IMG/VR virus record: IMGVR_UViG_3300037245_001320
Location: 90,019 to 154,018 of that record
Strand: one strand, 5' to 3'
Source: a virus
Length of the DNA stretch: 64,000 bases
How positions within the stretch are numbered: the stretch's first letter is position 1; each line of letters starts with the position of its first letter. The notes under the pieces are model-generated. The model was given only the letters and a program-made list of their open reading frames with translations, was not told the DNA's origin and did not search any database. Shown one piece after another: positions 31,650 through 33,067 of the stretch. Made by a program: the position numbers and the translations under genes.

Positions 31650-32096
31650 TTAGTGACTCCCTGTACTGCCATAAGCTCCTGATCCTCTTTCTGTTTCCTT
31701 ATTTAAAGAATCTACTTTTTTAAATACTGCCTCTGTTGTGGGAGCATAAACACCTTGACAAACTCTCATTCCGTGAGTTACATAAAATGGTTTATCCCCT
31801 TCATTTCTAAGGATAATTCCAACTTCTCCCACGTAATCTTCATCAATTGTAGCAGTTCCCTGGGCAATAATCAAACCATGCTTTTTAGTTAAGCCTGATC
31901 TTGATCTTAATTGGACTTCATATCCTTCATAAATACCCATTTTAATACCAGAAGGTACAGTTACTGCTTCCCCTATACCTATTCTAATGTCTTCATTAGG
32001 TGTGAATGCTTTTAAATCGAAGCCTGATGATTGTTTTGTGCCATATTCAGGCATGAACTCTTTTGTTTCTATTAGTAATTCTTTTTGATCTCTCAA
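31650..32096 (-). CDS. dut: Trimeric dUTPase
   Basis: SGFDL, RSGL, TIDEDYVGE, RVCQ, RGSGAYGSTG. Confidence 0.92.
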   Translation of the reverse strand: MRDQKELLIETKEFMPEYGTKQSSGFDLKAFTPNEDIRIGIGEAVTVPSGIKMGIYEGYEVQLRSRSGLTKKHGLIIAQGTATIDEDYVGEVGIILRNEGDKPFYVTHGMRVCQGVYAPTTEAVFKKVDSLNKETERGSGAYGSTGSH

Positions 32097-32128
32097 TAAT
32101 TCTCTCCTCTTTATTATTAAAATATGTA

Positions 32129-32209
32129 TGGATCTTATCCGACTCGAACGGATGACTTCATGAGAGCATTACCTTTGATCATGATTTCTACCAACTGAAT
32201 TAAAGACCC
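32129..32209 (-). tRNA. tRNA-like element with an expanded 15-nt anticodon loop (no assignable anticodon)
   Basis: Acceptor GGGTCTT/AAGATCC, D-loop AGTTGGTA, stem CATGA/TCATG, T-arm ATCCG-TTCGAGT-CGGAT. Confidence 0.8.
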
Positions 32210-32211
32210 GT

Positions 32212-32682
32212 ATGTTAGATTTTCACAGCGAATCCTCCCCAAACTGGCTAAAGTATTTACAACCCTTGAGCAATGAGTTGGTCCTTTTCCTTATTTTATT
32301 TACGAGAGTTTTAAAAGGTCTTCTAAACGTACTCTCTTTATTAAATCAATTTTTGTGCTCTTGGTTTTTATTCCAACTCATAGTCTTTCCTCTGATCGTC
32401 ATAAGGGTTTCTCTGTTACTCCCTTAACTCTCAACCTCTTTTAAAGCAATAGGCGTGCATCAACGCCTCGGTTTACTTAATGGAAGGGTTATTAATCTCC
32501 CACCTTACTCCTGACCTGCGAAGTAAGCTCTCGCTTTAATTCTCATGCTTCCTCCTTTATATTGTCTTATCTTAATAATTGTAGTATATCCCTTATGTCC
32601 CATATACCAGAGGCTGACACAACGCTTATTGTCACGACACCAATTATTAAAAAGTTTATTTATTATTTGTTACTCTTGACTT
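32212..32682 (-). ncRNA. Candidate large structured non-coding RNA
   Basis: No long ORF on the transcribed strand; at least ten nested helices; own promoter; abuts the tRNA-like element. Confidence 0.65.
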
Positions 32683-32687
32683 AAAAC

Positions 32688-32716
32688 AGTATACCACACT
32701 TTCAAGTAAAAGTCAA
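32688..32716 (-). promoter_or_regulatory. Sigma70-type promoter TTGACT-17-TATACT with TG extension
   Basis: Consensus boxes; directly upstream of the ncRNA/tRNA unit. Confidence 0.8.
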
Positions 32717-32872
32717 CCCCTTTTCGGAATATTTCTCAATTATTTTTTCAATTGTTATATCTTCTGGTAAATCCTTTAAAATAATGCCTTCTAAACGACA
32801 GCTCTCCCGATAATTATCCTTTCTAACCTTCCTAATGAATTCTGCTTTCTCTTCAAAAGTCTTGTTAATCAT
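32702..32872 (-). CDS. FicA/YhfG-like antitoxin (56 aa, not in the ORF track)
   Basis: MINKTFEEKAEFIRKVRKDNYRESCRLEG...; contains the S-x-x-x-E-G inhibitory motif. Confidence 0.6.
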   Translation of the reverse strand: MINKTFEEKAEFIRKVRKDNYRESCRLEGIILKDLPEDITIEKIIEKYSEKGLTFT

Positions 32873-33067
32873 TCTCTAAAATATCCAACACTTCTTTTAA
32901 TGTCTTAACTCTTTCTGTAGCTAGATGTAAGTTATCTAAGGCTACCTGTTTTAAACCGCCCATTTCATGAGTAGCATTATTGTAAACATCTTTACACATG
33001 TTCTCTCTTTCTATACCTTTCTCATAGAGTGTTCTTATTTTATTTAGTTTTTGTTTCATCTGTTCTC

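Follow-up and report, generated by a model that had tools for sequence, protein, structure and literature searches.

The leader of the dUTPase operon in this phage probably holds an array of small RNA genes, in which three modules (A, M, and B) and a tRNA with an enlarged anticodon loop (the odd tRNA) would be co-transcribed and processed by RNase P. Specifically, a host-type promoter would give rise to one precursor in which module A is followed by module M, a spacer, module B, the odd tRNA, and finally the dUTPase mRNA. On the evidence of their separate occurrence in relatives, these modules are independent, exchangeable cassettes, not domains of one RNA. Enzymes of tRNA processing would probably release them as separate small stable RNAs, with an RNase P cut where the odd tRNA begins (32209/32210) generating the 3′ end of module B. 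We infer co-transcription, processing, and RNA stability, and likewise any role played by modules A, B, and M. A preliminary description of this DNA, which proposed a single large structured RNA between a promoter and a tRNA-like element, was partly confirmed as an observation, and its interpretation was partly supported in that conserved structured RNA is present, although not as one large RNA.

The dUTPase leader, its promoter, and the search for known RNA families

The window, that is, the whole stretch of 64,000 nt that was analysed, spans positions 90019-154018 in an IMG/VR phage record of 154 kb, has a G+C content of ~33%, and carries tightly packed genes on the minus strand. The gap under study lies between a 56-aa ORF (32702-32872) and the dUTPase gene, which is the first protein gene of its operon. 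Relatives were reached solely via dUTPase protein homologues and their contigs, ten of which were informative (given below by handles such as L002), and the 600 nt of the gap were dissected by blastn against all of them. The features are as follows.

32688-32716, minus strand: sigma-70-type promoter, TTGACT-17-TG-n-TATACT, with a 10/12 score and an extended -10 TG
32572-32650, minus strand: module A, a three-way junction of ~79 nt, 91% identical to L002:5224-5301
32641-32650/32572-32581, 32630-32634/32615-32619, and 32602-32608/32583-32589, minus strand: helices P1, P2, and P3 of module A
32441-32539, minus strand: module M, a 99-nt cloverleaf-shaped four-way junction, closed by a stem of 9 bp and containing three hairpins (32504-27, 32481-502, and 32451-68)
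32505-32546, minus strand: 13-codon micro-ORF with AAGGAGG 5 nt upstream and no homologue
32337-32440, minus strand: spacer, poorly structured (z=-0.56) and unconserved, including a GAGUUGG able to pair with module B
32211-32336, minus strand: module B, conserved over 126 nt, comprising a hairpin on the 5′ side (32304-32336) and a nearly invariant 80-nt 3′ part
32129-32209, minus strand: odd tRNA, whose acceptor, D, and T arms are intact and whose anticodon loop has 15 nt (UCAAAGGUAAUGCUC); CCA not encoded
31650-32096, minus strand: dUTPase gene (PHROG 135, E=2e-45), 32 nt past the odd tRNA

The promoter, already recognized in the preliminary description as TTGACT-17-TATACT, was the top-scoring promoter-like site of the neighbourhood (32716-32688). 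Across the ten contigs, dUTPase followed an equivalent promoter, TTGACA-17-TGnTATAGT/TATTAT, with L002, L003, L011, L013, L014, and L015 as the individual cases, and comparison thus identifies the site as the conserved promoter of the dUTPase operon. No strong terminator was found between it and dUTPase, just a weak hairpin at 32451-68 that is G+C-rich and has no U tract. The reported lack of a long minus-strand ORF also stood, with none exceeding 35 aa between 32130 and 32690, and genetic codes 4 and 15 opened no convincing frame in the gap. On the plus strand, a 71-aa ORF (32212-32427) was rejected as a gene, having a Leu-rich translation of antisense type.

The gap had been proposed to encode a divergent member of the GOLLD or ROOL classes. 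These RNAs are non-coding and phage-associated, often lie beside tRNAs, and are possibly co-transcribed with them (PMC5737381). The likeness of the present region to them was solely one of context, namely a phage and an adjoining tRNA gene, with tRNAs in the same slot of the relatives as well. Searches with Rfam 15 at gathering thresholds over the window left the region without any match, and at E<=10 over positions 31900-32900 they returned just three chance-level matches (E 6.9-8.9). Models of GOLLD, ROOL, tmRNA, group I introns, riboswitches, and ribozymes matched neither the region nor the relatives. For ROOL this held at the gathering score in the window, at E<=10 in 31900-32900, and in the relatives. 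The region was moreover shorter than GOLLD, which is a large RNA of several domains, and showed no conservation as a unit. A tmRNA, whose two ends together build a tRNA-like domain and which carries a tag reading frame, was found by ARAGORN (-m) nowhere in the whole 154-kb genome. The covariance-model searches consequently place the region outside the GOLLD, ROOL, tmRNA, and group I families.

Other searches were equally negative. The region had no homologue by blastn among 50,697 phage records and no second copy in its own 154-kb genome. Motif scans, both exact and degenerate, that looked for the odd tRNA and for modules A and B yielded nothing in collections of viral, metagenome, and genome contigs, and the flanking HD-CoaD protein, used as bait, retrieved no related loci.

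Several features are those expected of a single structured non-coding RNA of ~470-550 nt that would represent a new GOLLD/ROOL-like class: the gap follows a single strong promoter, lacks an ORF, contains a number of well-formed local helices, and adjoins a tRNA, as GOLLD and ROOL do. All of the nested helices listed in the preliminary description were indeed present in the sequence; yet the whole 562 nt folded no better than shuffled sequence (z=-0.26, with 41/100 shuffles as good), and neither did positions 32337-32440. The long-range stem proposed at 32373-81/32273-81, which would join module B to the middle part, was a perfect 9-bp complement and was partly kept in L006, but 32% of shuffles also contained a 9-bp complement. 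In addition to this shuffle-like fold and the missing model match, which set the region apart from ROOL and GOLLD, it was conserved as one unit in no relative examined. Its parts were instead conserved separately, in different relatives and beside different tRNAs, and the middle ~240 nt were unique to this phage. One large RNA is, on balance, distinctly unlikely, and the array of small RNAs is the reading that we develop below.

Modules A, B, and M and the spacer

Module A offered the clearest record of selection on structure. All 22 of its 22 pairs form in both its own sequence and that of L002, five of them with compensatory change, and 10 of the 11 substitutions between the two sit in these five pairs (slid controls gave 0-2). 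The stem claimed at 32572-81/32641-50 around two hairpins was present as P1, with four compensatory pairs relative to L002. The 60-nt core was nearly invariant between the two phages. RNAalifold favoured another interior fold, and for this reason we take P1 as firm and P2 and P3 as likely. By these comparisons, the evolution of module A has preserved its structure, and the module is a well-supported new RNA motif that matches no known family. Because a covarying stem surrounds an invariant core, module A points to a sequence-specific role, which might lie in ligand, protein, or RNA recognition or in catalysis; the same combination might be read as the signature of an aptamer, a ribozyme, or a specific protein decoy.

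The terminal loops of module A (within 32583-32634, minus strand) both carry AUAAG/AUAAR, with AUAAGCGUUG as loop L2 and GGGACAUAAGGG as loop L3, and the junction contains an anti-SD-like CCUCU. The loop sequence could be a repeated recognition motif. No target of it emerged.

Module A lies ~30 nt after the transcription start, and its covarying closing stem around a near-invariant core gives it a riboswitch-like appearance. It might therefore be asked whether the stretch is a cis-regulatory leader of dUTPase, either with module A as a ligand or protein aptamer or with an attenuator built from the micro-ORF, which has a strong SD, and the G+C-rich hairpin that follows it (32451-68). However, the L002 copy of module A ends 6 nt before tRNA-Met, which follows directly with no expression platform between them, and the same promoter precedes dUTPase in relatives that have no such leader. 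Moreover, no riboswitch model matched, the hairpin has no U tract, and an SD-like motif before a short ORF commonly arises by chance in this genome. We judge cis-regulation of this kind to be quite improbable, and return to the small-RNA array.

Module B was 90.5% identical to L006:158-280, with a single change in its 80-nt 3′ part. The hairpin described at 32304-09/32331-36 was found, with one compensatory pair relative to L006. As had been stated for the region as a whole, module B stops just short of the tRNA, by 1-2 nt, and its 3′ end coincides with a tRNA 5′ end in both phages, the tRNA being the odd tRNA here and tRNA-Ser in L006. These sequence blocks hence have their boundaries at tRNA ends, and a putative RNase P cleavage at the odd tRNA as the event that sets a 3′ end fits the data. 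A GUUGG at 32373-77 could pair with module B in two alternative ways, given which the module may be larger than its conserved block. We discarded the idea that CCAACU of module B pairs with AGUUGG of the tRNA D-loop, as this pairing showed no covariation in L003, and the L003 leader was rejected as a homologue of module B, the similarity being too weak.

The middle ~240 nt (32337-32576), which include module M, had no homologue in any relative, and a proposed homology to the L006 and L002 leaders was rejected because local alignment scores fell below those of shuffles. The stem that had been described at 32531-39/32441-49 around three hairpins corresponds to the minimum free energy (MFE) fold of module M (-32.3 kcal/mol, 29% of the ensemble). 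A 105-nt window around this cloverleaf (32438-32542) reached z=-3.78, with 1/200 shuffles as good, but it was picked after folding and there is no homologue.

The 13-codon ORF overlapping module M (32546-32505), an ORF of 11-18 aa around 32400-32344, and, within module B, a TTG ORF of 16 aa could in principle encode micro-proteins, in that each has a purine-rich, SD-like motif upstream and the last persists in L006 with a single amino-acid change. Yet that change is the sole substitution in the 16-codon ORF; with one non-synonymous and zero synonymous substitutions, conservation acts at the nucleotide level. The remaining ORFs had no homologue, and the chance rate of an SD followed by a short ORF is high. 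Across the genome, 19/91 AGGAGG motifs precede an ORF of at least 30 aa and 22/91 precede a short ORF by chance, and the 13-codon micro-ORF with its AAGGAGG is probably fortuitous. Micro-proteins are the least credible account of the gap; we do not count these ORFs as genes and continue to treat modules A, M, and B as RNAs. Given that these are represented by few independent sequences (two for module A, two for module B, and one for module M), their covariation statistics are thin.

The odd tRNA and the variable slot in related phages

The tRNA-like element of the preliminary description proved to be tRNA-shaped, at 32129-32209. ARAGORN called it solely when introns were allowed (-i), as a tRNA-Leu(CAA) in which 10 nt are inserted at 37/38. 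By the measures of a canonical tRNA, namely a 7-nt anticodon loop and at least 29 bits on the Rfam tRNA model, it differed in having a 15-nt loop and no Rfam match; its L003 homologue scored 46 bits on that model despite having the same loop. The 15-nt-loop tRNA was kept in five lineages with the loop consensus NNAAAGKUAAWKCUC, its homologues being located at:

L003:5027-5106
L013:2812-2893
L006:594-676
L007:~17-92

Identity was 79-84% in L003, L013, and L006, and the L007 copy was more divergent. Six pairs showed compensatory change, by which the odd tRNA, too, has evolved with its structure preserved. In the ARAGORN register the anticodon is NAA, with a first base that varies among C, U, and A; this base is U in L003 and C in L013 despite 98.7% identity over 226 nt. 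The variable arm is short, unlike that of bacterial tRNA-Leu. An archaeal-type bulge-helix-bulge intron was considered and dropped, since inspection revealed no 4-bp anticodon-insert helix and both promoters and SD sites are of the bacterial type.

Across the ten related contigs, the space between promoter and dUTPase held anything from nothing to ~1 kb of tRNAs and other RNAs, as follows.

L014 and L015: empty, with 74-88 nt from promoter to dUTPase
L011: tRNA-Cys
L013: short leader, odd tRNA, tRNA-Cys
L003/L004: the L013 content with a further 130 nt
L006: module B, tRNA-Ser, 227 nt, odd tRNA; truncated at the 5′ end, where the contig begins
L002: ~1 kb, with 230 nt unassigned, module A, tRNA-Met, tRNA-Cys, 150 nt, and two tRNA-like genes with 44-66-nt inserts

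Since these contents differ behind equivalent promoters, the gap constitutes a variable slot for small-RNA genes in the dUTPase operon leader, and its modular make-up is evident from the comparison. Module A was found again solely in L002 and module B solely in L006, while the odd tRNA recurred in L003, L013, L006, and L007.

Two further genes in the L002 slot are tRNA-shaped (L002:5622-5782 and L002:5790-5923), with inserts of 66 nt and 44 nt, respectively, close to the anticodon loop. Both have long extra arms, and ARAGORN detects them, too, solely with introns allowed. Thg1-like and RtcB genes lie 2-4 kb upstream of these insert-bearing genes. In L014, where the RNA slot is missing, the dUTPase promoter is immediately preceded by a gene of 605 aa that has T5orf172/MUG113 (GIY-YIG-type) domains (L014:1110-2927), and the product of this gene may be a homing-type nuclease near a recombination hot spot.

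The mosaic structure of the slot was sharpest between L003 and L013. There, 226 nt comprising the promoter, the leader, and the odd tRNA (L003:4880-5106 and L013:2667-2892) were 98.7% identical up to a sharp boundary, whereas beyond it the tRNA-Cys genes shared 75% identity and the dUTPase genes 67% at the DNA level (66% for the protein); a 130-nt insertion in L003 lies immediately 3′ of the odd tRNA. Because identity is so high upstream but only 67% in dUTPase, cassette exchange by recombination is ongoing.

Such variability and clear mosaic recombination would also be expected if the gap were mostly non-functional filler at a recombination hot spot, made of decayed tRNA genes or fragments, with the promoter and the odd tRNA alone functional. 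Most spacers of the relatives fold no better than shuffles, as does 32337-32440, and the absence of any homologue of the middle part would also accord with filler. Drift in junk would not, however, place 10 of the 11 substitutions of module A in compensatory pairs. Modules A and B were also much more conserved, at 90-91% identity, than the adjacent dUTPase genes, which shared 63-65% DNA identity and 49% at third codon positions, and Rfam detected no tRNA remnant in the middle part at E<=10. Filler is accordingly an unlikely explanation, if somewhat less so than one large RNA or a cis-regulatory leader. Some of the ~90% identity seen in modules A and B may, however, be due to recent transfer and not to constraint, given the recombination between L003 and L013.

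Comparison with known systems and possible roles

The closest known kind, by analogy, is the tRNA region of phage T4, from which RNAC and RNAD (species 1 and 2), two small non-coding RNAs whose role is unknown, are transcribed (PMC3014915). Here, likewise, modules other than tRNAs intervene between tRNA genes or immediately precede them, downstream of one promoter common to all, and the position within a promoter-driven tRNA slot was seen here at the level of sequence; the two regions are likened by context, not by sequence. Unlike that of T4, the present array is situated in the leader of the dUTPase operon, varies in content from zero to ~1 kb, and includes tRNA-shaped genes with enlarged anticodon loops.

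For the odd tRNA, a parallel exists in the Lak megaphages, whose tRNA genes contain 'enigmatic introns', that is, conserved extra sequence in the anticodon loop, and are missed by standard bacterial tRNA finders (PMC6784885). The odd tRNA similarly has 8-10 extra nt, and L002 has its two insert-bearing tRNA-like genes. However, the insert of the odd tRNA is far shorter than the Lak introns and nearly invariant (GGUAAWGCUC), and the likeness concerns the tRNA, not modules A, B, and M.

Modules released from a tRNA transcript would also bring to mind small RNAs of bacterial origin. The 3'ETS-leuZ sponge of E. coli is a functional small RNA derived from a tRNA spacer and freed from the tRNA precursor by tRNA-processing nucleases. 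Sponges of this kind are short, host-encoded, and act by base pairing, in contrast to the modules described here, which are 80-130 nt long, structured, and phage-encoded.

Outside the window, the genome of this phage encodes an RtcB RNA ligase (G000:C1:57324-58379; 154.8 bits, a two-piece match in one 394-aa frame), which may be relevant to tRNA repair or to the rejoining of cut tRNAs. Given this gene, and the Thg1 and RtcB genes next to the slot in L002, a link of the slot RNAs to tRNA repair or anti-defence is possible. Tentatively, and with well under even confidence, we suggest that module A, and perhaps modules B and M, might constitute new classes of small functional phage RNA, carried as cassettes that move between phage tRNA arrays. 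These might act together with the 15-nt-loop tRNA and phage RNA-repair enzymes of the RtcB/Thg1 type, for example against host tRNA-cleaving defences or in an undescribed route of tRNA maturation.

Our analysis shows that what had looked like a new giant RNA was a false candidate, and points instead to a group of uncultivated phages that keeps a promoter-driven slot, in which tRNAs and unassigned structured RNAs are swapped like cassettes. Two small RNAs, modules A and B, recur in related phages, match no known RNA family, and are apparently undescribed, while the conserved 15-nt-loop tRNA joins the increasing number of tRNA-shaped RNAs of phages that are overlooked by standard finders. The functional claim is a modest one; if these RNAs do act in tRNA repair or anti-defence, the known roles of phage tRNA regions would be extended.
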